A DNA stretch of 11,794 nucleotides from Candidatus Hodarchaeota archaeon. Its GTDB lineage: Archaea; Asgardarchaeota; Heimdallarchaeia; Hodarchaeales; Hodarchaeaceae. The stretch lies in NCBI GenBank assembly GCA_016839785.1, contig JAEOTQ010000247.1, positions 1-11,794 of the forward strand, given 5' to 3'. Made by a program: the position numbers and the translations under genes. Of the stretch, positions 182 through 11,792 are shown one piece after another. Within the stretch, counting starts at the first letter, position 1, and each line of letters opens with the position of its first letter. The notes below the pieces were generated by a model. It was not told the origin of the DNA. It worked only from the letters and a program-made list of their open reading frames with translations, and did not search any database.

Positions 182-871
182 GTGATTAATCGCTCGCTAT
201 TCTTGATCCTTATTATGGCTACTATTCTAATGGTTTTGGCAGAAAAGAAAGTACCTAGTAAATATGAGTGGATAATTAACTTTCTAACCTTGGGACGACG
301 AATAAAAATATATAAGTACATTAGACAGAAATATCTTCAAGAAAATCAATTCATTCTTGATGCTGGATGTGGAACTGGTCGTTTTGTAGAAATAGCAGAC
401 GCAACTTGGGTAAGTTGTTTAGGAATTGATATTTCCGAAAACATGCTTCAGCAGGCAAAAATGCGATTTAGAGGGAGAAAACAACATCCTCCTTTGATTC
501 AGACTTCAATTACTGCTTTACCACTAAGAATAGAGTCATTCGACATTGTAATTTGCACCTTTGTCCTCTCAGAATTAAATCTTCAGCAAGTTCAGGATTC
601 ATTGAGAGAACTCTATACTTGTTTGAAAAAGGAAGGTCTTTTATTACTTGTTACAGAATCAAAACCTGAAAGCAAGATGAAACGTATTTTTTTCAATTGT
701 ATAAGGATTCCTGCTTTTCTAGTAACAAAAATTTTTGCGAGAATACCAAAACATCCTGTTTATGACGTGAAAGCATTACTTGAAGCTCATTCAGGTACAA
801 TCCTCGAACAAAAATCATATCTTGGAGAGCATCTTACTTTAATCGTTTATGAAAAAACTCCTATGAGATAG
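182..871 (+). CDS. Class I SAM-dependent methyltransferase (UbiE/Methyltransf_11/25-like), probably of the corrinoid-protein-associated (CpaM-like) type
   Basis: Motif I ILDAGCGTG, acidic post-I GIDISENML, motif II SFDIVICTFVLSEL, motif III LKKEGLLLL. The UbiE-like N-terminal segment PSKYEWIINFLTLG and adjacency to an hgcA-like gene suggest the corrinoid-associated subfamily (recalled, not searched). The true start may be ATG at 215 rather than GTG at 182. Confidence 0.88.
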   Translation: MINRSLFLILIMATILMVLAEKKVPSKYEWIINFLTLGRRIKIYKYIRQKYLQENQFILDAGCGTGRFVEIADATWVSCLGIDISENMLQQAKMRFRGRKQHPPLIQTSITALPLRIESFDIVICTFVLSELNLQQVQDSLRELYTCLKKEGLLLLVTESKPESKMKRIFFNCIRIPAFLVTKIFARIPKHPVYDVKALLEAHSGTILEQKSYLGEHLTLIVYEKTPMR

Positions 872-968: not shown

Positions 969-1943
969 GTGGTTAGTATGGGTATTTTAGAGACATTTAA
1001 AGAAGGATTCTCGATTGCCATTGCAGGAATCGCATTCCCTGGGTTAAATCTGAATGTAACCCCTGGACTCTATCCCATTGGTCATCCTACAGAAGATTCT
1101 CCCATTTTAGTCACATCTAATTATTTTGTCACTTATAAAAGGGTTGTTTCGTCTCTGGAAAAACAAGACGTCACTGCTTGGCTGTTAGTAGTTAATACAG
1201 AGGGTGTAAATGTTTGGTGCTCTGCTGCTGGAGGAAATTTCACTGCAGAGAAGATTCTAGATCAGATAGATGACACTAACCTATCAGAGGCGGTTAATCA
1301 TAGACAGTTAATTTTGCCTCAATTGTCTGCATCTGGGGTTAACCATCTCGTCTTAAATAAAGCTAAATGGGAAGTAAAATTTGGACCTGTCAATATAAAT
1401 GATTTAGGGGAATATTTACAAAACGATCTATCAAAAACTACAAGTATGTCTCAAGTTGAATTCAATCTGAGAAGTCGAATTGAAAATTGTGTCTCTCATA
1501 ATGTCTTTATTTCTTTAATTTTAATACCTTTGATCCTAGGAATACAAATCTTAGCTCAACCTCTTGGTTTTCTCCTTCAACCCTGGGCCCAGTGGCTCTT
1601 AGTAAATGTGATATTCCTTTTGCTTTTTATTTGGGCTTTTGGTTTCCTTGTTGGTATTCTCTATCCTATAACACCATTTAATTCGGGTTTTCTCAAAGGA
1701 GTCATTCTATCGGCCATTCTAGTGCCTCTATGTGCAATATTATTCTTTACGAGTTCACTTTTAGATTTTATATTGGCAATCGGAACATTATTCCTCTATG
1801 GCATCGTAATAAGTACTGATTTTGATGGATTTTCCCCGTTTTGGGGCACTGATTTCATTTTAAAGGATTATTTGCTCTTAACTGGAGCTGCTGTGATAAT
1901 AATTATCATTTTAATCATTTCACCAATAATAATAGGAGGATAA
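969..1943 (+). CDS. HgcA-like corrinoid (cobalamin-binding) membrane protein: CdhD/CFeSP-like domain plus about 5 C-terminal TM helices, with a divergent cap helix
   Basis: HgcA-type blocks in order: PGLYPIGHPTEDSPILVTSNY, WLLVVNTEGVNVWCSAAGGNF (cap helix, 1209-1235; canonical N(V/I)WCA(A/G)GK), HRQLILPQLSASGV, FGPV..DL..YL, MSQVEF. These are followed by five hydrophobic segments with a DFDGFSPF loop. Alternative start ATG at 978. No symbol given because the motif is non-canonical. Confidence 0.85.
   Translation: MVSMGILETFKEGFSIAIAGIAFPGLNLNVTPGLYPIGHPTEDSPILVTSNYFVTYKRVVSSLEKQDVTAWLLVVNTEGVNVWCSAAGGNFTAEKILDQIDDTNLSEAVNHRQLILPQLSASGVNHLVLNKAKWEVKFGPVNINDLGEYLQNDLSKTTSMSQVEFNLRSRIENCVSHNVFISLILIPLILGIQILAQPLGFLLQPWAQWLLVNVIFLLLFIWAFGFLVGILYPITPFNSGFLKGVILSAILVPLCAILFFTSSLLDFILAIGTLFLYGIVISTDFDGFSPFWGTDFILKDYLLLTGAAVIIIIILIISPIIIGG
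1934..1940 (+). promoter_or_regulatory. Shine-Dalgarno-like site for the ferredoxin gene, embedded in the last codons of the hgcA-like gene
   Basis: AGGAGGA at 1934-1940, ending 9 nt before the TTG start at 1950. It overlaps the Gly-Gly codons just before the TAA stop. Confidence 0.6.
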
Positions 1944-2489: not shown

Positions 2490-2588
2490 GTGGTGAAATT
2501 TTCAAAAGGAAAAGTCATAAGAGTACTCCAACACCCCTTATTAAATATTATACTAGTTATTATGGTTATAAATGTTAGTGCGATAGCT
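2490..2588 (+). other. Predicted Sec signal peptide or N-terminal signal anchor
   Basis: MVKFSKGKVIR (basic), PLLNIILVIMVINVS (hydrophobic), AIA (A-x-A). Confidence 0.65.
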
Positions 2589-5500
2589 GTAACTATACCG
2601 AACACGACTAGGTCTGAAAAAATAGAAAAAAACATTATTTTACCTCGTTTGATGTGCAATACTTCACTCACTCATGCGATTGATGGAGAAAATGGTTATT
2701 ATAAACCTGTTTCGTACTTGCTGGATTCTACTATTCATTCAGATACACTATTTGATATTAACACTCTTTCAATAGAAACAGAATTCCCCCCTGTGAAATA
2801 CAGCGTTCAATCAGGGATAGGAACAGAGGTTCTTATCGATGATGCTACATATGATGCCACTGACGAATATAATCCTGGGCCAGGCGTGGTGTTTATCAAT
2901 GGATCTCATGGTTACGTTTTTTATCAGAAAACGATTGACGAAAGAAGTGAAATTGTTTATTCTAAAACGACTAACGGCGGGGACAGCTGGTCATCCCCCA
3001 TAGGTCTTGATTCAACATTTAATGATCCGACTTTCAGGAGTTTTTCCGTTTGGTACGATCAATGGACACCTGGAAATAGCGGTGATTTGATCCACATTAT
3101 TGTTGGGGCTGCTGGCGATTATATGGAAATGTATTACAATTATCTTGACACTTCAGATGATAGTTCGAGTGGTGCGTGGACATTCTTATATGGTTTTGAA
3201 TGGCATAATGCTCCTGATGGAGGTGGAGCTGTTACCGTTTCAACAGAGGGATATATTTTTGGCGCTTTATGGGGTCGTCGACCAGGTACAGACTATCCTC
3301 GAATTATGAAATATGATTCAAGTTGGACTGATATTTCTCCAGAATATGCAATTAATACTGAAGAACACGATCATGGACAACTCTTACCTTTAAGCAACGG
3401 GGATATTATTTGTATCTATGAGGATTCAGGACAGAATAATCTATATTCATTTGTTTATGATGAGGAAACTGATACATGGGATTCTTCGGCGACTATTGTG
3501 ACTTCAATTGTTTCTGGAACTACAACAGGTTGGGAAGACGCAAATTGGGGAGCAGTACTTGACCCAGACACTTATGACGTATATTTACTCCTCAATAATG
3601 ATGTTTTTGCAAACGGAGGGGATATGGAGACTTGGGTTTTCTCTGATAATGATCGTTCTTGGAGCAAGAAAACTGATGTACTGAAAAATGTCGGTTCTAG
3701 TGGAGATGAAGTTAAGCCTACTTATGATCCTCTGACTGATACACTTTATGCAATAGCGATCTTTGGAACTAATATCTATGTTAAAAACTCAACAGATGGA
3801 GGTGATTCTTGGGGATCATTTGAAGAAATAACAACAGCAAGCGAAGATTGGATAGTAGTCCGTACCAATTTTATCTCATTTGGGAGAGTTTATGCGATCT
3901 ATTTTGATGAACCTAATGATGACCTTTATGGAAACACTATTTCATTAACTGATATCAATCCCCCCGTTGTTAATGATTTTGGTGTTGATGATCCTGGAAA
4001 TGGAAATATCCAATTCTGGGCAAATGTTACTGATGATCTATCCTCTGTTGCAAGTGTTAAACTTGATCTGAACGATATCCTTTACGACATGACTCTTAAT
4101 GAAACTGGATATTGGATTTACCAACCATCATCAGTCGTCTATGGAGACGTTTTCACCTACCAAATTATTAATGCTTCCGATACAGAGGGGAATTACTTAA
4201 CAGGGGGCACACAAAAGGATAGTATTACCTTAACTTATGATACAGTTTTTCCGATGGTTGACGATTGGGAGTATTTCAATGATATTGGATCTTTTGGTAC
4301 CTTTAATGCTAATGTATCCGATTTGTGGGGAGAAATTGATACAGTATTGGTGAATGTGACGAAATCTGCAGGAGTAGATCGTAATGATCTGCTCGCTATC
4401 ATGATACCAAGTCCCTCGGGATATCTCAACGATACTCTTCAGATGGATCCAGGAACTATCTTTTTTGAGATAATAGTTAACGATACAGTTGGAAATACTG
4501 AAACGTCAAGTCTACATCAAGGGTATGTACCTGAGGTGAATCATCCACCCACTGCATCAAACCTGACTCTCTCACCTGATCCTCTTTATAGTAATGATAC
4601 TCTAACATTAAGTTATAATTTTTCCGATCTTGATGGCGACTCTGATCTGGGAACGGAGATCAGATGGTACAAAAACAGTATTCATCAAGAAGCTTTTGAT
4701 GATGAACAGGACGTTCAAGATTTTGCCCTGTTTAAAGGTGATAAGTGGAATGTTTCGGTAAGGCCGAAAGATGGTCAAGATTTTGGCGAATTAGTCTGGT
4801 CCTCAATCATCGTCGTGCAAAATAATGTGCCAAATATTACTAGTTACTATACTAGTCCTGGAACACCCACTACAAGCGCTGTATTAAATATCAGCTATTC
4901 CTACTATGACACCGACAACGACGAGGAAAATATTACTAATAGGGAGATAGAATGGTATAAAGATGGACAACCTGTAGGAACCCTCAATGATCAGATTTCC
5001 GTACCCTCTTCCGAGACAAAAAGGGGAGATAACTGGCATTTCAAAATGCGTGTTCATGATGGAACAAATTTTTCTAGTTGGGTTATTTCATCAAATGTGA
5101 CAATTATCAATACTGCTCCATTCGTTAGCGACTATTTTGTGTCACCAATAAATCCAAAGACAGGAGACAACCTTGTAGCAAATTATACATACTCCGATCC
5201 AGACTCAGATTCTGAAAGCGAGTCATATATTCGCTGGTACAGGAATGGGGTTATCAATTCAACATACACCAACCAGACAACAGTTCCAGCAGCAGCCACT
5301 AAAAAAGGGGAAAATTGGTATTTTACCGTCCGACCAAGTGATGGAACTGATTATGGGAGCCTGAAAACTGCATCATATGTTACAATATCCAACACTGTAC
5401 CCTCTGTTTTCACTTTAAATATCACTCCAAGTATTCCAAAAACAGGAGACATCCTTTTAGCAGACTATACCTATGATGACCCTGACGATGATCCCGAAAG

Positions 5501-8500
5501 TGGTTCAGAGATCATTTGGTATAAAGGAGGAATATTACAAGGAAGTTTAGACTCTCTAACTGTTTCTGCCAGTCTTACGGCTAAGGATGACGAATGGCAT
5601 TTCAAGTATCGGCCATGTGATGGTACTGATTTTGGTGTGTGGGTATCGTGTCCTGTAAACGTTACTATCAGCAATACGGCGCCAACAGCAAACAACTTAA
5701 TGTTAACACCTGTTGATGCAAAAACAGGTGATGAATTAACAGCGGATTATAGCTATCATGATAATGATTCTGAAACTGAAAGCGGCACAGAAATCATTTG
5801 GTACCTCAACGGTACCTTGCAAGACCTCAATGATTCTTTTTCCATTCAATCAGGTAATACGAGTAGAGGAGACGAATGGCACTTTAAGGTTCGTCCGAAA
5901 GATGGAATAGATTTTGGAGAGTGGGTTGATAGCCCAAATATTACCATTAGGAATACACCACCAGTTGTTTCTGAAGTTGAAATCAACAACAACGATCAAT
6001 CAGCTCAAGTAGATAACGAAACAGACCTTGTTGCAAGTTATTCGTTTTTTGATGCTGATGGAGATGATGAAAATTATAGTCAACGAGTAATTTTATGGTA
6101 CAAAGGTAATCCGGGGGAATTGCAAAGTTCTCTCACGAATTCTTTAACCGTTGGACATGGTAATACAACAGTTGGGGATATTTGGTATGTTAATATTTCC
6201 CTTTATGATGGATTTAACAACAGCAATTATATAGTCTCTCCATCTGTAAGTATTGGACAAACAGCAAATGTGGTACCGGTTGCGAGTGATCTCAATATTT
6301 CAAATCCCAATCCAACAACCATAGATTACCTTTACATAAATTACACTTATTATGATACTCTTCACCCTGAATCAGGATCAATGTACTATTGGTATCGGAA
6401 TAACATTCATATGAGCCAATTTGATGGATTTAGGAACCTCTCTTATCTAGCAACCGCTAAGGGAGAGGAATGGCATGTCAAAGTACGGCCACGTGATGGT
6501 ATTGATTTTGGTGTTCTTGTCGGATTAGATCCTAATGTAACTATAGGTAACACTCCGCCATCCATTGTAGGTTTAGAAGTATCTCCTTTGAATCCTATTT
6601 CTGGTAATGATCTCAGTATTAATTATGAATACAATGATATAGATGGAGACTCTGAAAACGGTTCAGAGATTATTTGGTATCTCAACGGCACCTTGCAAGA
6701 CCTTAATGATTCTTTTATCATTCAATCAGGTAATACGAGTAAAGGAGACGAATGGCATTATAAATTACGTCCGAGAGACGGGACAGATTTTGGAGAGTGG
6801 GTTAGTTGTCCAAGTAATGTTACTATTGGAAATACAGCTCCTTCAGTCAGCAGTTTGAATATAAATCCTGGCAATCCTCGGACAGGAGATGCCCTTGAGG
6901 CAAATTACAGTTATTTTGATACTGATTTTGATTCTGAAAGTAATTCAATAATTCGTTGGTACAGGAATGGGGAATGGGATCCAACTTATAATAACCAGCA
7001 AACTGTTTCTGCAACAGCTACCTCGAAAGGGGAAAATTGGTATTTCACCATCCAACCTGGAGATGGTACTGACAATGGAAACCTGAAAACTTCTCCTATG
7101 ATCACCATCGCAAATTCGGCCCCATCTGCTAGTGGTTTATCAATTATCCCTAGCATACCTCAAACGGGACAAATCCTTAACGCTAGTTTCTATTTTGATG
7201 ACCCTGACGATGATCCAACAAGTGGTACTGAGATCATTTGGTATAAAACCGGGATCTTACAAGGTGAATTAAACAATTCGCTAACTGTTCCAACCAGTTA
7301 TACTGTTAAGGGTCAAGAGTGGCATTTCAAAGTCCGACCGTCTGATGGAACTAGCTCTGGTGGTTGGATAAGTTTACCTATTAATACGACTATAGCTAAC
7401 ACGAGACCCCAAATGGATTCGGTAATTTTATATCCATCTGGAGCGGTATATACTACACAAGCTTTGGTCGTGAATTATGAAAGTTCTGATATTGACCACG
7501 ATTTTATAACGGACTATCGTATTGTTTGGTTGATTAATGGCTCTGTAGAAGTTCCAAAATTAGAAAACAAAACTGAAGTTCCATCTAATTACACCAAAAA
7601 AGAAGATACTTGGGTTTGTCAAGTACAAGCGTTTGATGGCGAAGATTGGTCTGATTTTAAGTTTCCTATGACTGGAATAGCAATCTTGAATTCTAAACCA
7701 AATGTAAATTCCATAACTATAACGGGGGGCGAAACTACTGATGATAATATTGTCATTTCCTATAATTATACTGATCCTGACGGAGATTTTGAGTCATATA
7801 CACAAACTCAGATTTCATGGAAGATATTTCATAGGGGAAGTTTAGTGATTCCACCTTCAACAGCAACGATTGATAATTCATGGATAACCGCTGGTGATTT
7901 CGTCTTTTGCTGGATTAAACCTCATGATGGTGAAGAGTTCGGGGACATCATGGATTCTACAGCTTTTGAAAAAGGATATCTCATTGTTGGAAACTCGCCT
8001 CCTGAACTCTCAACTACACCAAATATTCTAGATTCCAACGATACAACAATTTTTTCTGCAATAAGTTCTCTACATGTTAACTATACAGTAACAGATGTTG
8101 ATCACGGTGAAAGTGATGAGGTGTATGATATAGAAGTTATTGATGGTCTAACTGTTGGTGCTGAGTATCGCTGGTATAGAAATGATGAGCTAAAAACCAT
8201 GTTAGACGGCCCCTTGGTCGATTCCTCCTATATTCACGAAGGAGAGATATGGATGGTTAGCACCCGACCACGGGACCGTTATGGTGACTTTGGTAATTGG
8301 GTTAACTCTTCTCCTATCGTCATTGGAAATAGTGCACCATCAATTCTAGGTTTCTCATGGACAACAGAAAGTCCGACAACCATAGATGATCTTCTCTTTT
8401 CTTACAATTATTTCGACCATGATCTCGATCCTGAATGGGTAAACATGACCATGATTCAATGGTATAAAAATGGTACAGAGATGCTAGCAGTTGAGAACCA

Positions 8501-10784
8501 GACCATCCTGGATCATGTGTATTTCACAAAGAATGATTCCATTTATGTTATTGTACAATCTTATGATGGAAAAGAGTATAGTATACCTTATAGAAGTGAA
8601 AATATCACAATAATCAATGCTCGTCCAGTGGCGTCCAATCTATCTATTAATCCCATTATCTCTTATACAACGGATTCCTTGAGTGTAAACTGGATTTATG
8701 AGGATCTTGATGACGATTTAGAAAGTACTCAAAACTTGATACATTGGTATAAGAACGGAATATTAGAATCGATTTTAAATGATTCTAAATACATAAGCTC
8801 TGCCAATACCAAAAGGGGAGATATCTGGGTTGTGACTCTTCAGGTGTTTGATGGTTTCAATTATAGTTTTCTTTATGAATCCGAGCCAATAACCATCTTA
8901 AACTCTCCAAGTACCATCACTCAAGTTGCAATTAATGGTAATATTGAATATACATATGCAGACACCTTTCTGAAAGCTGATTGGAATTTTGAAGACCCAG
9001 ATGGAGATTCTGAAGCTGATCATTTAATTTACTGGTTTTTAAACAATACTCTTCAAGCTGATCTTACCAATTTCACACTAATACCCAACTCAGACCTTTC
9101 ACAGGGTGACACTTGGTCTTTTGTCGTTCAGATATTCGATGGTGAAGATTGGTCATTGAACCATTCTTCTCAAGTGATATCGATTGTTGAGAATATCGTT
9201 TCTTCGCATGGTGTAGATTTGTTACCTGATAGTGAAGGATATAATCGTGAGGGATATTATCACCTCTGGATTAATGCGAGTGAATTTTGTGTCGATAATG
9301 GAGATATCTATGAGACAAGATATCAAATTACAATAAACAACACTCTTACTCTCCCAGAAAGAGTGACTGTTCTAAATAATGGAACTGATACCTTTTGGGT
9401 TCTGAATTATAACTTGTTGGACGATCTAGAAGAAGATTTTATCGCATATATCGATACAACTGCTGTTGTAACATTCACTGCACTAGCTAAAATACAAGGA
9501 AACTTCATAGTTAACTCTACTTTAACTTCTAATTTCACCATTGATGATCGATTTGCCCCACGGGTGACAAATGTATATTATGAATGGAATGATGATCGTA
9601 ATCCTACCAATCTCACATTTTACGCCAATCTACAGGAGTTTGGTTCAATCCCAGATGATATCCAAGTTACAGTTTATTATTCTTTTGACCCACCTGGGAC
9701 AACAAACCAAACAATTGGATTAGGTTCCATTGTGCTTCAGAATGGAGAACTCAAGGAAGCACAAATGAAATATGAGAATAAGACGGGAGAGAATCTCCTT
9801 TACTCCGTGACTGTTCCTTTTTCTCCCTCATCTGATGTAGAAATCCACTTCCGAATCCAAACTGAAGACAAACTAGGAAATAAGAATGAGAGTGCATTTA
9901 CTCATGAGCAACTTCAAACACCCCTTTCCTTCAAGTTACCTGGTTTTGATTTGGCTGATTTAATCCCGCTACTAGTTGTAGTCGGGGTGGTGCCTGCATT
10001 TCTTATCATTGTTGCTGTTTTAGCTCGGAGGAGACAACAAACTAGAATCTATAGAAAAAGACAAAAAGTGAAATCAATTGAGGAAAAATTAGCAGATATC
10101 TTCTCGTTAAGAGCAATTTTATGTCGAAATATGTTCGGCGTTCCTTTCTATACAGAAAATTTTGTAGAAGAGAGGCGAGACGGAGAATTAATTGCTGGAC
10201 TAACCTCGGCAATGACAGATTTCGTAAGTCAAGTAGCTCAAAGAGACATTAGTAGCGGGGAATTTGATGTTTTAGAAAGAGAGGGATTTAACATTCTATC
10301 TTATCATGGGGAATATTCCACGACTACGTTGATAGCAGAAACAAAACCAAGTTCTTACATTAAAGACAAACTTGTTGAAATAACTGACCAAATAGAAAGC
10401 AAATTTTCGAGGAATAGATTACAGGATTCTGAAATTTCTGGAACTCAAGAACCAATTAAAAAAATATTATATAAAACTCTTCCGCTGGGGTTATTTAAAC
10501 CACTAATTGTTGATGAGGAGCGTCTTAAAAAGCGAAAAAAGCACTTTAGTAAGGATGAGATAAAATGGTTTGAGTATGTGAAAGAAGTCCCATCATTCAT
10601 TGATGGTCAACAAGTATTCTACGCGATGACTTTTATTACTTCTCTTACTCTTCATGGGATTCCACTAACACAGGCTTTCAGCTTTCTTGAGACTTGTTAT
10701 GAGCTTGATGTAGTTCGTAACCTTACAGAGCAAGAGAGGAGTTTCTTTGAACCTGTTGTGGCAGTGGAACGACAACAGTATTAA
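2490..10784 (+). CDS. Giant (2764 aa) type I single-pass surface protein: signal peptide, Asp-box propeller-like domain, Ig-like repeat stalk, TM helix, cytoplasmic longin/roadblock-like domain
   Basis: Uninterrupted 8295-nt ORF. N-terminus has basic, hydrophobic and A-I-A segments. Two Asp-boxes, 16 ~95-aa repeats, TM LIPLLVVVGVVPAFLIIVAVLA followed by RRRQQTRIYRKRQK (positive-inside), and a 252-aa cytoplasmic tail. The exact start (GTG 2490 or 2493) is uncertain. Confidence 0.92.
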   Translation: MVKFSKGKVIRVLQHPLLNIILVIMVINVSAIAVTIPNTTRSEKIEKNIILPRLMCNTSLTHAIDGENGYYKPVSYLLDSTIHSDTLFDINTLSIETEFPPVKYSVQSGIGTEVLIDDATYDATDEYNPGPGVVFINGSHGYVFYQKTIDERSEIVYSKTTNGGDSWSSPIGLDSTFNDPTFRSFSVWYDQWTPGNSGDLIHIIVGAAGDYMEMYYNYLDTSDDSSSGAWTFLYGFEWHNAPDGGGAVTVSTEGYIFGALWGRRPGTDYPRIMKYDSSWTDISPEYAINTEEHDHGQLLPLSNGDIICIYEDSGQNNLYSFVYDEETDTWDSSATIVTSIVSGTTTGWEDANWGAVLDPDTYDVYLLLNNDVFANGGDMETWVFSDNDRSWSKKTDVLKNVGSSGDEVKPTYDPLTDTLYAIAIFGTNIYVKNSTDGGDSWGSFEEITTASEDWIVVRTNFISFGRVYAIYFDEPNDDLYGNTISLTDINPPVVNDFGVDDPGNGNIQFWANVTDDLSSVASVKLDLNDILYDMTLNETGYWIYQPSSVVYGDVFTYQIINASDTEGNYLTGGTQKDSITLTYDTVFPMVDDWEYFNDIGSFGTFNANVSDLWGEIDTVLVNVTKSAGVDRNDLLAIMIPSPSGYLNDTLQMDPGTIFFEIIVNDTVGNTETSSLHQGYVPEVNHPPTASNLTLSPDPLYSNDTLTLSYNFSDLDGDSDLGTEIRWYKNSIHQEAFDDEQDVQDFALFKGDKWNVSVRPKDGQDFGELVWSSIIVVQNNVPNITSYYTSPGTPTTSAVLNISYSYYDTDNDEENITNREIEWYKDGQPVGTLNDQISVPSSETKRGDNWHFKMRVHDGTNFSSWVISSNVTIINTAPFVSDYFVSPINPKTGDNLVANYTYSDPDSDSESESYIRWYRNGVINSTYTNQTTVPAAATKKGENWYFTVRPSDGTDYGSLKTASYVTISNTVPSVFTLNITPSIPKTGDILLADYTYDDPDDDPESGSEIIWYKGGILQGSLDSLTVSASLTAKDDEWHFKYRPCDGTDFGVWVSCPVNVTISNTAPTANNLMLTPVDAKTGDELTADYSYHDNDSETESGTEIIWYLNGTLQDLNDSFSIQSGNTSRGDEWHFKVRPKDGIDFGEWVDSPNITIRNTPPVVSEVEINNNDQSAQVDNETDLVASYSFFDADGDDENYSQRVILWYKGNPGELQSSLTNSLTVGHGNTTVGDIWYVNISLYDGFNNSNYIVSPSVSIGQTANVVPVASDLNISNPNPTTIDYLYINYTYYDTLHPESGSMYYWYRNNIHMSQFDGFRNLSYLATAKGEEWHVKVRPRDGIDFGVLVGLDPNVTIGNTPPSIVGLEVSPLNPISGNDLSINYEYNDIDGDSENGSEIIWYLNGTLQDLNDSFIIQSGNTSKGDEWHYKLRPRDGTDFGEWVSCPSNVTIGNTAPSVSSLNINPGNPRTGDALEANYSYFDTDFDSESNSIIRWYRNGEWDPTYNNQQTVSATATSKGENWYFTIQPGDGTDNGNLKTSPMITIANSAPSASGLSIIPSIPQTGQILNASFYFDDPDDDPTSGTEIIWYKTGILQGELNNSLTVPTSYTVKGQEWHFKVRPSDGTSSGGWISLPINTTIANTRPQMDSVILYPSGAVYTTQALVVNYESSDIDHDFITDYRIVWLINGSVEVPKLENKTEVPSNYTKKEDTWVCQVQAFDGEDWSDFKFPMTGIAILNSKPNVNSITITGGETTDDNIVISYNYTDPDGDFESYTQTQISWKIFHRGSLVIPPSTATIDNSWITAGDFVFCWIKPHDGEEFGDIMDSTAFEKGYLIVGNSPPELSTTPNILDSNDTTIFSAISSLHVNYTVTDVDHGESDEVYDIEVIDGLTVGAEYRWYRNDELKTMLDGPLVDSSYIHEGEIWMVSTRPRDRYGDFGNWVNSSPIVIGNSAPSILGFSWTTESPTTIDDLLFSYNYFDHDLDPEWVNMTMIQWYKNGTEMLAVENQTILDHVYFTKNDSIYVIVQSYDGKEYSIPYRSENITIINARPVASNLSINPIISYTTDSLSVNWIYEDLDDDLESTQNLIHWYKNGILESILNDSKYISSANTKRGDIWVVTLQVFDGFNYSFLYESEPITILNSPSTITQVAINGNIEYTYADTFLKADWNFEDPDGDSEADHLIYWFLNNTLQADLTNFTLIPNSDLSQGDTWSFVVQIFDGEDWSLNHSSQVISIVENIVSSHGVDLLPDSEGYNREGYYHLWINASEFCVDNGDIYETRYQITINNTLTLPERVTVLNNGTDTFWVLNYNLLDDLEEDFIAYIDTTAVVTFTALAKIQGNFIVNSTLTSNFTIDDRFAPRVTNVYYEWNDDRNPTNLTFYANLQEFGSIPDDIQVTVYYSFDPPGTTNQTIGLGSIVLQNGELKEAQMKYENKTGENLLYSVTVPFSPSSDVEIHFRIQTEDKLGNKNESAFTHEQLQTPLSFKLPGFDLADLIPLLVVVGVVPAFLIIVAVLARRRQQTRIYRKRQKVKSIEEKLADIFSLRAILCRNMFGVPFYTENFVEERRDGELIAGLTSAMTDFVSQVAQRDISSGEFDVLEREGFNILSYHGEYSTTTLIAETKPSSYIKDKLVEITDQIESKFSRNRLQDSEISGTQEPIKKILYKTLPLGLFKPLIVDEERLKKRKKHFSKDEIKWFEYVKEVPSFIDGQQVFYAMTFITSLTLHGIPLTQAFSFLETCYELDVVRNLTEQERSFFEPVVAVERQQY
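2820..3950 (+). other. BNR/Asp-box beta-propeller-like (sialidase-fold) head domain; boundaries approximate
   Basis: Asp-box motifs SKTTNGGDSWS (2961-2993) and STDGGDSW (3789-3812). Degenerate blade ends include YDEETDTWD and SDNDRSWS. Aromatic-rich short beta-strand pattern. Confidence 0.65.
4539..9191 (+). repeat. 16 tandem ~95-aa Ig-like beta-sandwich repeats (coding)
   Basis: Consensus N-x-x-P...L...Y.Y.D.D.D.E....I.WY.NG......T.KG..W.F..RP.DG.DFG.......VTI. The unit starts are NHPP, NNVP, NTAP, NTVP, NTAP, NTPP, NVVP, NTPP, NTAP, NSAP, NTRP, NSKP, NSPP, NSAP, NARP, NSPS (hand count of 16). Confidence 0.9.
5790..6803 (+). repeat. Nucleotide-level direct repeat pair 5790-5927 and 6666-6803 (Ig units 5 and 8)
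   Basis: Ungapped, offset 876 nt. Hand alignment gives 17 mismatches in 138 nt (about 88% identity) and 40/46 identical residues. Confidence 0.85.
9960..10025 (+). other. C-proximal transmembrane helix of the giant protein
   Basis: 22 uncharged residues LIPLLVVVGVVPAFLIIVAVLA, immediately followed by an Arg/Lys cluster. Confidence 0.9.
10098..10480 (+). other. Cytoplasmic longin/roadblock-like (profilin-like fold) domain
   Basis: beta-beta (LRAILCRNMFGVPFY), helix ELIAGLTSAMTDFVSQV (resembles the L-x-x-G-x-x-S-A-x-x-x-F helix of longin/roadblock proteins), three short strands (FDVLER, FNILSYHG, TTTLIAE), then helix SYIKDKLVEITDQIESKF and a final helix. This matches longin topology b-b-a-b-b-b-a-a. 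Confidence 0.65.
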
Positions 10785-10823
10785 AATTTGGAGTTTGTAA
10801 GGAAAAAACCAGCAAACTTTCCT

Positions 10824-10844
10824 CTTTTTTAACAATTAAAAAAG
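10824..10844. terminator. Candidate bidirectional oligo-T terminator / AT-rich inverted repeat between convergent genes
   Basis: CTTTTTTAA-caa-TTAAAAAAG is a perfect 9-bp inverted repeat giving a T6 tract on each strand, 40 nt after the giant ORF stop. Oligo-T tracts are typical archaeal terminators. Confidence 0.45.
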
Positions 10845-11225
10845 GTTACAGGGAAAAAATGGTTTCATTATATTTCTTCATCTCTAAATTTTCTCAATAT
10901 TGTCGGTTTTTTTAGTCCATTGCTCAACTAGAAAACCTTATTCTTTAACCAAGTGTTAATAGAATATCTAGTTAAACTTTTAAAATCCGATCACATGTAT
11001 TTCATCAGTGAAATCTCTCCCCAATACAATATTTCTGGAATTCCTCCATGATAGTTTTAAAACCTCATGTGTTTAAGAAAATCGAGAGAAGGTTTGAATG
11101 AGTTTATTCCAAAAGATACTCGAAAGAATGAAACAAATGAAAGCTTTTCAGATAATTATTGGGAAATTTGATTTTTTGAAAGAATTTCAAACGATAACGT
11201 AATAATGGCTACTAATTTTTTCCTA

Positions 11226-11792
11226 CTAATCTTGATTAATAATTCCTTGTTTTTTCAATATTTCTTTGGTTAAAAGAGAGAACGTTTCGCGAATATTCGC
11301 GTCTTGATAAGCTGATGTCTCAAGATATTTTATAGGTAAGAAATCTGGAATAACTTGATCTTCAAGAAAACCATAATCAATTCGAATCGAATCTTCAAGA
11401 TCAGACTTATTCCCAATTAATATATTTGGAATTTTATCCTTTCCAAGACGGTCGTCAATCTGTTGTTTCCATTCATAGAGGTCATCAAGGGTTTCAGGCC
11501 GAGTAAGATCAAATACTAAAAGCGCACCATGAGCTTTCCTGAAAAAAACATCTCGTAATGTTTGAAAGCGTTTTTGGCCCGCCACATCGAAGATAATAAG
11601 ATTAACAAGAAATCCATCTACTTCGATCTGCCGATTAGACGGATCGAGCCCTACAGTGAGTAAATAATTAAATTCAAACCTATCTTCGACATATCTTCGA
11701 ATAATTGATGTTTTTCCTACCGCTCCAGAACCGCAAACAATGATTTTCAAATGATATTTTGCCTTCTGATTGTTGTAATTCATTGATTTCAC
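11226..11792 (-). CDS. Rab-like small GTPase (Ras superfamily), no C-terminal prenylation motif
   Basis: G1 GSGAVGKT (11732-11709), G2 T in YLLTVGLD, G3 DVAGQ, G4 NKSD, G5 ETSAY. RabF-like motifs VGLDP, NLIIF, RFQTLR, FFRKA, LVFDLT. The start (GTG 11792 or ATG 11783) lies at the window edge. Confidence 0.93.
   Translation of the reverse strand: MKSMNYNNQKAKYHLKIIVCGSGAVGKTSIIRRYVEDRFEFNYLLTVGLDPSNRQIEVDGFLVNLIIFDVAGQKRFQTLRDVFFRKAHGALLVFDLTRPETLDDLYEWKQQIDDRLGKDKIPNILIGNKSDLEDSIRIDYGFLEDQVIPDFLPIKYLETSAYQDANIRETFSLLTKEILKKQGIINQD

Follow-up and report, generated by a model that had tools for sequence, protein, structure and literature searches.

We analysed an entire 11,794-bp contig (G000:C120, hereafter the window) from a 4.04-Mb, 84.5% complete genome of a Hodarchaeales archaeon, which carries the gene of a giant surface protein (P0001) next to that of a Rab-like small GTPase (P0002). 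Structural modelling indicates that the cytoplasmic tail of P0001 contains a true longin-fold domain at tail residues 28-159, behind a single transmembrane (TM) helix. Across a phylum-wide Asgard family this tail is what stays constant, a single intracellular module combined with widely differing ectodomains.

The tail was modelled using AlphaFold2 (AF2) with a 42-row alignment, which yielded a predicted local distance difference test score (pLDDT) of 90 and a predicted template-modelling score (pTM) of 0.84. A model computed from the single sequence was unusable (pLDDT 36) and was superseded by the alignment-based one. Secondary structure assigned by DSSP (strands at tail residues 29-36, 41-46, 81-86, 89-95 and 99-105; helices at 54-71, 111-127, 130-134 and 142-152) displays the longin topology beta-beta-alpha-beta-beta-beta-alpha-alpha, with a five-stranded antiparallel sheet between helices. 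Comparison of the model with the PDB using Foldseek returned 32 matches at E≤1e-3, and the matches listed were either of the longin type (zeta-COP, AP sigma, Sec22b, Ykt6, VAMP7) or roadblock proteins (LAMTOR, MglB, Prometheoarchaeum roadblock). A VIA structural search, which is independent of Foldseek, gave Z-scores of 13.1 for synbindin (2zmv) and Sec22 (3egd), 12.8 for VAMP7 (4afi), 12.3 for sedlin (2j3w), 10.3 for a Lokiarchaeota longin (8yqg), 8.2 for MglB and for 9jue, and 8.1 for MP1/p14. In that search 45 chains reached Z≥8, the top rows listed were all longin or roadblock, and the top superpositions had a root-mean-square deviation of ~3 Å across 120-127 residues. Because of these Foldseek and VIA superpositions, the longin fold is supported at the structural level, and the longin/roadblock topology that the original prediction had read from the sequence alone was borne out. 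Eukaryotic longins, namely TRAPPC4 synbindin (2zmv), Sec22b (3egd/1ifq), VAMP7 (4afi), sedlin (2j3w) and AP sigma, have the fold and topology of tail residues 28-159 (Z 13.1-11.5; Foldseek TM-score 0.77 for Sec22b), at a sequence identity of 5-14%. The tail resembles roadblock proteins such as MglB and MP1/p14 less than it resembles longins.

At the sequence level, the tail matched no Pfam family at E≤10 and no NCBIfam family at E≤1, and was not a member of Pfam Longin, Sybindin, Sedlin_N, Clat_adaptor_s or Robl_LC7. Likewise, a profile of the tail family (alignment A2) matched none of the PDB sequences. Two candidate matches were set aside: a Plexin-C1 profile match obtained with alignment A1 covered the TM and upstream columns, and a DEP-domain match of the C-terminal subdomain (E 0.14 with A1) was absent with the cleaner A2. 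Judging from the order of its modelled secondary-structure elements alone, this small C-terminal subdomain appears winged-helix-like.

An exhaustive HMMER search recovered tail relatives in 137 cluster representatives at E≤1e-3. Among the best 34 of these 137, the tail match was always C-terminal, and a TM-like segment lies just ahead of it in all 31 representatives that reach upstream, the other three starting in or just before the tail. The tail profile (A2) found a match at E≤1e-6 in 383 of 400 Asgard genomes, in 81 of 85 genera and in all 90 of the 90 high-quality genomes; within the archaeon's own family, 21 of 22 genomes had a tail match. The genome studied here encodes four clear tail genes (on contigs C120, C142, C163 and C204) and two divergent ones on C224, as well as membrane or soluble proteins that match the longin part alone. 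Furthermore, in a 50-locus sample from other Asgard families, 42 of 52 tail domains were preceded by a hydrophobic segment within 60 residues upstream. The ectodomains of the large members vary and are for the most part unannotated (22/26 had no Pfam match at 1e-5), and the remaining four contain ConA-like lectin, DUF2341, PKD or Ig-like domains.

Departures from this layout were also observed. Six proteins of ~590-735 amino acids (aa), mostly from one Asgard family (L154, L155, L157, L161, L173 and L183), have the tail at their C-terminus without a hydrophobic segment in the preceding 60 residues and may be soluble versions of the family. Conversely, three proteins of ~250 aa from other Asgard families (L145:1414-2166, L148:1399-2154 and L190:2995-3747) consist of a TM helix and the tail, almost without ectodomain. 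The archaeon's own genome also contains a 335-aa open reading frame (ORF; C74:7773-8777, + strand) with a match to the GTPase query (1.6e-7). A second, weak match at aa 199-306 is to the longin part of the hidden Markov model (HMM) of the tail (whole-protein E 1.7e-3, domain 4.5e-3). The product thus resembles a Rag-like protein in which a GTPase is fused to a longin or roadblock domain.

Gene neighbourhoods across the tail family

In the genus, a Ras-like GTPase gene lies within 1.5 kb downstream of 11 of the 62 tail genes with flanking sequence, several of these loci having less than 1 kb of downstream sequence. The own-genome background was estimated from 3433 proxy genes, 105 of which have a GTPase gene within 1.5 kb on either side and 54 within 500 bp. 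For the tail-HMM matches of the same genome, the corresponding counts were 5/24 and 3/24. When 60 tails were placed in a tree (two rows were excluded for lack of a detectable TM segment), they fell into three clades, and the adjacent GTPase genes were distributed unevenly among them: 6/7 tails in clade A, 4/23 in clade B, which holds the window, and 1/30 in clade C.

Clade A was examined further in 201 Asgard genomes using the C224 tail as the query (E≤1e-12). Clade-A tails were found only in the archaeon's own order, in 13 of 15 genomes of its own family and in the one genome (1/1) of the order's second family, and in none elsewhere. A GTPase gene follows on the same strand, at most 454 nt downstream, in 13 of 26 clade-A loci, sometimes as two genes in tandem; in two further loci a second giant tail gene comes downstream and is then followed by a GTPase gene. 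All 12 downstream GTPases tested had one and the same own-genome GTPase as their best match. In a tree of 39 GTPase sequences, six same-strand-adjacent GTPases grouped in one clade (Shimodaira-Hasegawa-like approximate likelihood-ratio test, SH-aLRT, 96) and P0002 in another. This group includes the GTPase of contig C142 (2486-3157), which is of the same kind and is encoded 4 nt downstream of a clade-B tail gene of the archaeon's own genome. A conserved small-GTPase neighbourhood was found for clade A only, and not for the window pair, for clade B or for the other families. These comparisons of sequence and gene order support a putative family-level link to small GTPases for this sister branch only, and it is because of the clade-A pairing that the general receptor-to-GTPase idea stays alive.

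Contig C224 itself carries two giant clade-A tail genes and a small GTPase gene on one strand (14174-20008, 13444-14025 and 5135-12379, all on the - strand). Comparable same-strand arrays occur at G005:C152 and G006:C69 (L215/L229 and L216/L230), where two giant tail genes of clade A are separated or followed by one or two small GTPase genes.

Clade C has neighbours of a different kind. The next same-strand gene after the tail gene encodes a conserved ~315-aa protein with a coiled-coil end in 17 of 30 clade-C loci, plus one fragment, and in 16 of these 17 it is followed by a gene for a gelsolin-repeat protein of ~400 aa (Pfam Gelsolin 1.5e-6 on a fragment). The ectodomains encoded in these trio loci range from ~600 to 2,250 aa. 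The 315-aa protein had no Pfam match, no meaningful PDB profile match and no Atlas match, and its alignment to the tail profile using hhalign gave a probability of 0.2. One of its motifs may resemble FLCN/DENN-type longins. No 315-aa or gelsolin neighbours of the clade-C kind were found in the window's clade B, and for most tail genes, the window's included, the neighbourhood gives no clue to a partner. One of the trios lies on contig C204 of the archaeon's own genome (8173-11517, 7222-8166 and 5676-6908, all on the - strand); others were seen at L053-L069 and elsewhere.

The giant protein and the locus of its neighbouring GTPase

Four ORFs of at least 80 aa were found in the window. A hydropathy scan revealed only two strongly hydrophobic segments in P0001, at aa 9-39 and aa 2483-2515. 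Directly C-terminal of the second, the TM helix, stands ARRRQQTRIYRKRQK, followed by the 253-aa tail (window 10023-10781). The N-X-S/T sequons are strongly skewed, with 74 in the ectodomain of ~2,450 aa and one in the tail, which therefore supports a topology with the ectodomain outside and the tail inside. P0001 is a type-I surface protein that is probably heavily N-glycosylated.

The head region carries two Asp-box-like motifs in its translation, STDGGDSW at aa 434 and TTNGGDSW, and had no match to Pfam or to PDB sequences. Its Atlas feature scores against BNR/sialidase clusters (0.84-0.86) fall under the tool's 0.9 mark, so a BNR/sialidase-like propeller is a lead only. Stretches of the repetitive stalk matched the NCBIfam ZirU family (1.2e-19, below the curated cut-off), the sole matches obtained for the repeats, and the Ig fold that the original prediction saw in the stalk is likewise a lead. 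A database entry, P0005 (2740 aa), is 100% identical to the giant protein with its start called 24 codons later, leaving out window 2490-2561; the longer GTG start at position 2490 provides a normal basic n-region and hydrophobic signal/anchor.

Table 1. Features of the 11,794-bp window and the basis of each assignment.
Feature	Coordinates	Strand	Basis
c7, SAM (S-adenosylmethionine)-dependent methyltransferase	182..871	+	Pfam Methyltransf_11 6.3e-21, synteny
c4, CdhD-like N-terminal domain and polytopic C-terminal half	969..1943	+	Pfam CdhD 1.5e-25 (aa 28-145), synteny
P0001, giant single-pass surface protein gene, 2764 aa, GTG start	2490..10784	+	ORF list and translation
N-terminal hydrophobic signal/anchor, aa 16-38, preceded by basic n-region	2535..2603	+	hydropathy scan
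Head region, aa 95-500, two Asp-box-like motifs	2772..3989	+	motif reading, Atlas leads
Stalk, 16 tandem repeats of ~95 aa, W-motif from aa 726 to 2182	4557..9239	+	motif spacing
Single TM helix, aa 2488-2512, followed by Arg/Lys cluster	9951..10025	+	hydropathy maximum 3.15 at aa 2494-2512
Juxtamembrane helix, tail residues 1-27	10023..10103	+	AF2 helix 2-27, pLDDT about 97
Longin domain (modelled), tail residues 28-159	10104..10499	+	AF2 model, Foldseek, VIA
C-terminal small alpha/beta subdomain (modelled), tail residues 160-253	10500..10781	+	DSSP of AF2 model
Convergent intergenic gap, 441 nt, AT-rich, T-tract past the giant gene's stop	10785..11225	.	sequence read
P0002, Rab-like small GTPase, 188 aa	11226..11792	-	Pfam Ras, PDB matches, synteny

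P0002 is a Rab-like GTPase by sequence. It matched Pfam Ras at 7.6e-40, and the best 60 of its 762 PDB sequence matches were Rabs or the yeast Rabs Ypt1/Sec4, plus one Thorarchaeota Rab; Rab1A came top (2.4e-34), with Ypt1, Rab8 and Sec4 among the best. The translation contains the G motifs GSGAVGKT, DVAGQ, NKSD and ETSA of a Rab-like G domain. It ends in ...LKKQGIINQD, with no Cys in the C-terminal region, and no C-terminal Cys prenylation motif is present. The original prediction had described a giant ORF with a ~2460-aa ectodomain, one TM helix and a cytoplasmic tail, followed across a 441-nt gap by a convergent gene for a non-lipidated Rab-like GTPase. The ORF list, the hydropathy scan and the GTPase matches agree with this layout in every point checked. 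The functional link that it drew between this tail and the adjoining GTPase fared differently, as the synteny of the locus argues against it.

The clade of GTPases to which P0002 belongs occurs in 19 of the 22 genomes of the own family, and we compared the gene order at its 20 loci. A giant gene stands beside the GTPase at only two of them, the window and its close relative L034, whose tail and GTPase are 81% and 91% identical, respectively, to those of the window. Five genomes (L110-L114) have the order c1, GTPase, (small ferredoxin), c4, c7, MFS, EamA, GNAT and no giant gene. The window and L034 follow the same order, but with the giant gene between the GTPase and c4. Because the GTPase-c4-c7 order exists without a giant gene in five genomes, the giant gene would be a lineage-specific insertion beside a pre-existing GTPase locus, for which c4 and c7 serve as markers. 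Their adjacency thus looks like the result of a recent insertion, and P0002 is probably a chance or recent neighbour of the giant protein rather than its partner.

The constant neighbour of the P0002-type GTPase is c1, a divergently oriented polytopic protein of ~620-660 aa that adjoins it in 18 of the 20 loci and matched no Pfam family (examples: L034:7954-9882 and, in the own genome, C149:15696-17582, both on the + strand). In the window the contig breaks off right at the first base of the GTPase ORF, and sequence past the GTPase, c1 included, is therefore not visible there. On gene order, c1 appears a better candidate than the giant protein as the functional partner of P0002-type GTPases.

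The P0002-type GTPase is encoded in a single copy in each of the 18 other genomes, whereas G000 has two loci, on C120 and C149; this could be a real duplication or reflect two populations in one bin. In a contamination check of the window contig, the GC content was typical and the flanking genes were not duplicated elsewhere in the genome. On C149, at 864 nt from the P0002 paralog, lies a gene whose product is another membrane protein, with a longin-like domain at its C-terminus (tail HMM E 3e-8). That gene (C149:13044-14138, + strand), two genes away from the paralog, encodes ~365 aa with a multi-TM N-terminal half ahead of the longin-like domain, and proteins of this type recur in L115-L117 and L120, giving five loci in total (tail HMM E ~1e-8 to 1e-10). 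A predicted complex of two tails (A2) with P0002 (A3) scored 0.00 against a mark of 0.32 in a run without controls, and carries no weight for or against binding.

The c4 gene (969-1943, + strand) is itself an unusual fusion of a domain like the delta subunit of CO dehydrogenase/acetyl-CoA synthase with a polytopic membrane half. Its position beside the methyltransferase gene c7 is kept in relatives.

Comparison with known systems and weighing of the explanations

Among the eukaryote-like genes that are a hallmark of Asgard archaea are those for longin and roadblock domains and for dozens of small GTPases. In longin/roadblock regulators such as TRAPP, Mon1-Ccz1, DENN, FLCN-FNIP, GATOR1 and MglB, the domains bind a small GTPase on a usually dimeric platform and act as guanine nucleotide exchange factors or GTPase-activating proteins. 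The longin of the P0001 tail sits after the TM helix, at the C-terminal cytoplasmic end, in contrast to the SNARE longins Sec22, Ykt6 and VAMP7, in which the longin is N-terminal and the TM segment far C-terminal. The giant protein had no Synaptobrevin/SNARE Pfam match and does not show the longin-SNARE order. With the soluble longin/roadblock proteins of Asgard archaea (Lokiarchaeota Roadblock-Longin 8yqg; Prometheoarchaeum Roadblock2/3 9jq8 and 9jue), the tail shares its superfamily and its phylum.

Asgard roadblock (RB) and longin structures are given in PMC10933270, the examined part of which does not contain the word 'transmembrane'. These Asgard longin/roadblock proteins are small and soluble or fused to a GTPase, whereas the tail is held at the membrane with a huge ectodomain in front of it, and the genes of one tail subfamily are paired with GTPase genes. 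The examined part of PMC10933270 states that the GTPase genes of MK-D1 are generally outside operons of RB or longin genes and that genome layout seldom tells which regulator goes with which Asgard GTPase. MglB-MglA and Ragulator-Rag may serve by analogy as working models for a membrane-held longin/roadblock platform that docks a non-lipidated small GTPase. Ragulator, however, owes its membrane attachment to the lipidation of LAMTOR1 rather than to a TM receptor (compare the abstract of PMC5696360).

A parallel to clade A is an Asgard operon with genes for a LAMTOR1-like roadblock protein, a Rab-like GTPase and a DENN protein, described in the preprint of Liu et al. (10.1101/2020.10.19.343400), which also lists 130 Roadblock/longin asCOGs and NPRL2-like longins with a small C-terminal domain. 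As in the clade-A pairs, a Roadblock-superfamily protein is joined there to a Rab-like GTPase in a conserved Asgard neighbourhood. Unlike in that operon, no DENN or LAMTOR1-like gene was seen beside the tails, and what is paired with the GTPase is the part of a large surface protein that lies in the cytoplasm. Longin tails anchored by a TM helix were not described in the literature searched, which did not extend to the supplementary asCOG tables of Liu et al., where the family may be listed.

We consider that the tail may be a membrane-tethered longin docking platform whose partner differs by subfamily, an explanation that stands an even chance of being correct. Through one constant longin module, varied surface proteins would be coupled to a partner inside the cell. 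In clade A and for C142 this partner would be a dedicated subfamily of Ras/Rab-like GTPases, whereas in part of clade C the 315-aa protein and gelsolin would together take its place. The giant gene of the window would have been inserted into an older locus, leaving it beside a Rab-like GTPase only recently. We infer binding of the longin tail to a small GTPase or to some other partner in the cytoplasm, while the relay of a signal across the single TM helix is pure conjecture.

Several observations weigh against such a platform. Longin domains also have roles that do not involve GTPases. Those of SNAREs and of adaptor sigma subunits are examples, and both kinds are among the best structural matches of the tail. 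The original prediction proposed to check whether tail homologs recurrently neighbour small GTPases; this holds for clade A, with its same-strand genes in 13 of 26 loci, but in the genus as a whole 51 of 62 tail genes have no GTPase nearby, and in other Asgard families 0 of 51 tail genes has one within 1.5 kb (at ten of these loci the downstream sequence extended for only ~0.9-1.5 kb). In four probably orthologous tail genes of those families, a GTPase gene lies at 1504-1527 nt on the opposite strand. Two of the four GTPase-adjacent tails of clade B are the window and its ortholog. Furthermore, orthologous loci are not independent, and the neighbourhood counts therefore suggest more separate events than there were; ~6 changes are required on the tree, at least four of which are forced by well-supported branches. 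Finally, the homology of clade A to the window tail is indicated by HMM E-values of 1e-10 to 1e-16, and for the own-genome copy by one of only 1e-4.

Other explanations give the tail a different role. It might serve as a structural anchor, linking surface proteins with the cortex or the actin cytoskeleton, small GTPases not being direct partners. The 315-aa gene after 17 of 30 clade-C tails, with gelsolin in 16 of these whatever the size of the ectodomain, points in this direction. So does the Asgard cell envelope described in the portion of PMC9834061 consulted, which lacks an ordered S-layer, bears many complex surface proteins and forms protrusions filled with actin. We nevertheless regard such an anchor as rather unlikely, given that clade B, to which the window belongs, has no such neighbours, that the 315-aa protein belongs to no recognisable family and that clade A is paired with GTPases instead of cytoskeletal genes. 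The tail could also be a shared tag for sorting, localisation or turnover, read by common machinery that places, clusters or removes surface proteins, and not a signalling device. One conserved C-terminal module on many unrelated ectodomains in nearly all Asgard genomes would suit a tag of this sort, and most members lack a conserved neighbour, as expected if the shared machinery is encoded elsewhere. SNARE longins, adaptor sigma subunits and SRX are among the best structural matches, and of these the SNARE longin domains and the SRX domain act in targeting. A tag would however leave the pairing of clade A with a dedicated GTPase subfamily unexplained, and we think it unlikely to be the answer.

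A further reading, that of the original prediction, is that the longin tail of the giant protein itself recruits or regulates the adjoining P0002, so that outside-in signalling would run through this very gene pair. The two genes are 441 nt apart, the pairing is kept in the closest relative, and the C149 paralog lies within 1.5 kb of a longin-like membrane protein, an arrangement recurring in four further genomes; in addition, longin and roadblock platforms are known GTPase partners according to the part of PMC10933270 consulted. Yet the giant gene is beside the GTPase in 2 of 20 loci only, five genomes have GTPase-c4-c7 without it, and the constant neighbour of the GTPase is c1 (18/20 loci). 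The two genes are convergent and therefore not co-transcribed, P0002 belongs to a clade other than that of the GTPases operonic with tails, and at a background of ~3% one or two chance adjacencies are expected among 62 tail genes. This makes a partnership within the window pair very improbable.

The docking platform can be carried further into a more ambitious proposal, which we offer as speculative and on balance doubtful. Asgard archaea, especially Hodarchaeales, would possess outside-in receptors in which a ligand or a cell contact, acting on a giant glycosylated ectodomain, clusters the membrane-tethered longin tails. The clustered tails would then recruit or switch a dedicated non-lipidated Rab-like GTPase (clade A, C142) or the module of 315-aa protein and gelsolin (clade C), leading to local remodelling of the actin cortex or membrane. 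The window protein would be one such receptor, its GTPase being encoded elsewhere. If true, this would represent a prokaryotic forerunner of the coupling between receptor, small GTPase and cytoskeleton.

With a longin held on the cytoplasmic side of the cell membrane, at the end of surface proteins that are large and variable, such domains gain a location and a plausible input. Furthermore, the sub-branches in same-strand pairs with a GTPase subfamily or with gelsolin offer concrete pairs for expression and testing. The family thereby bears on the origin of membrane and cytoskeleton control in the lineage held to be closest to eukaryotes.

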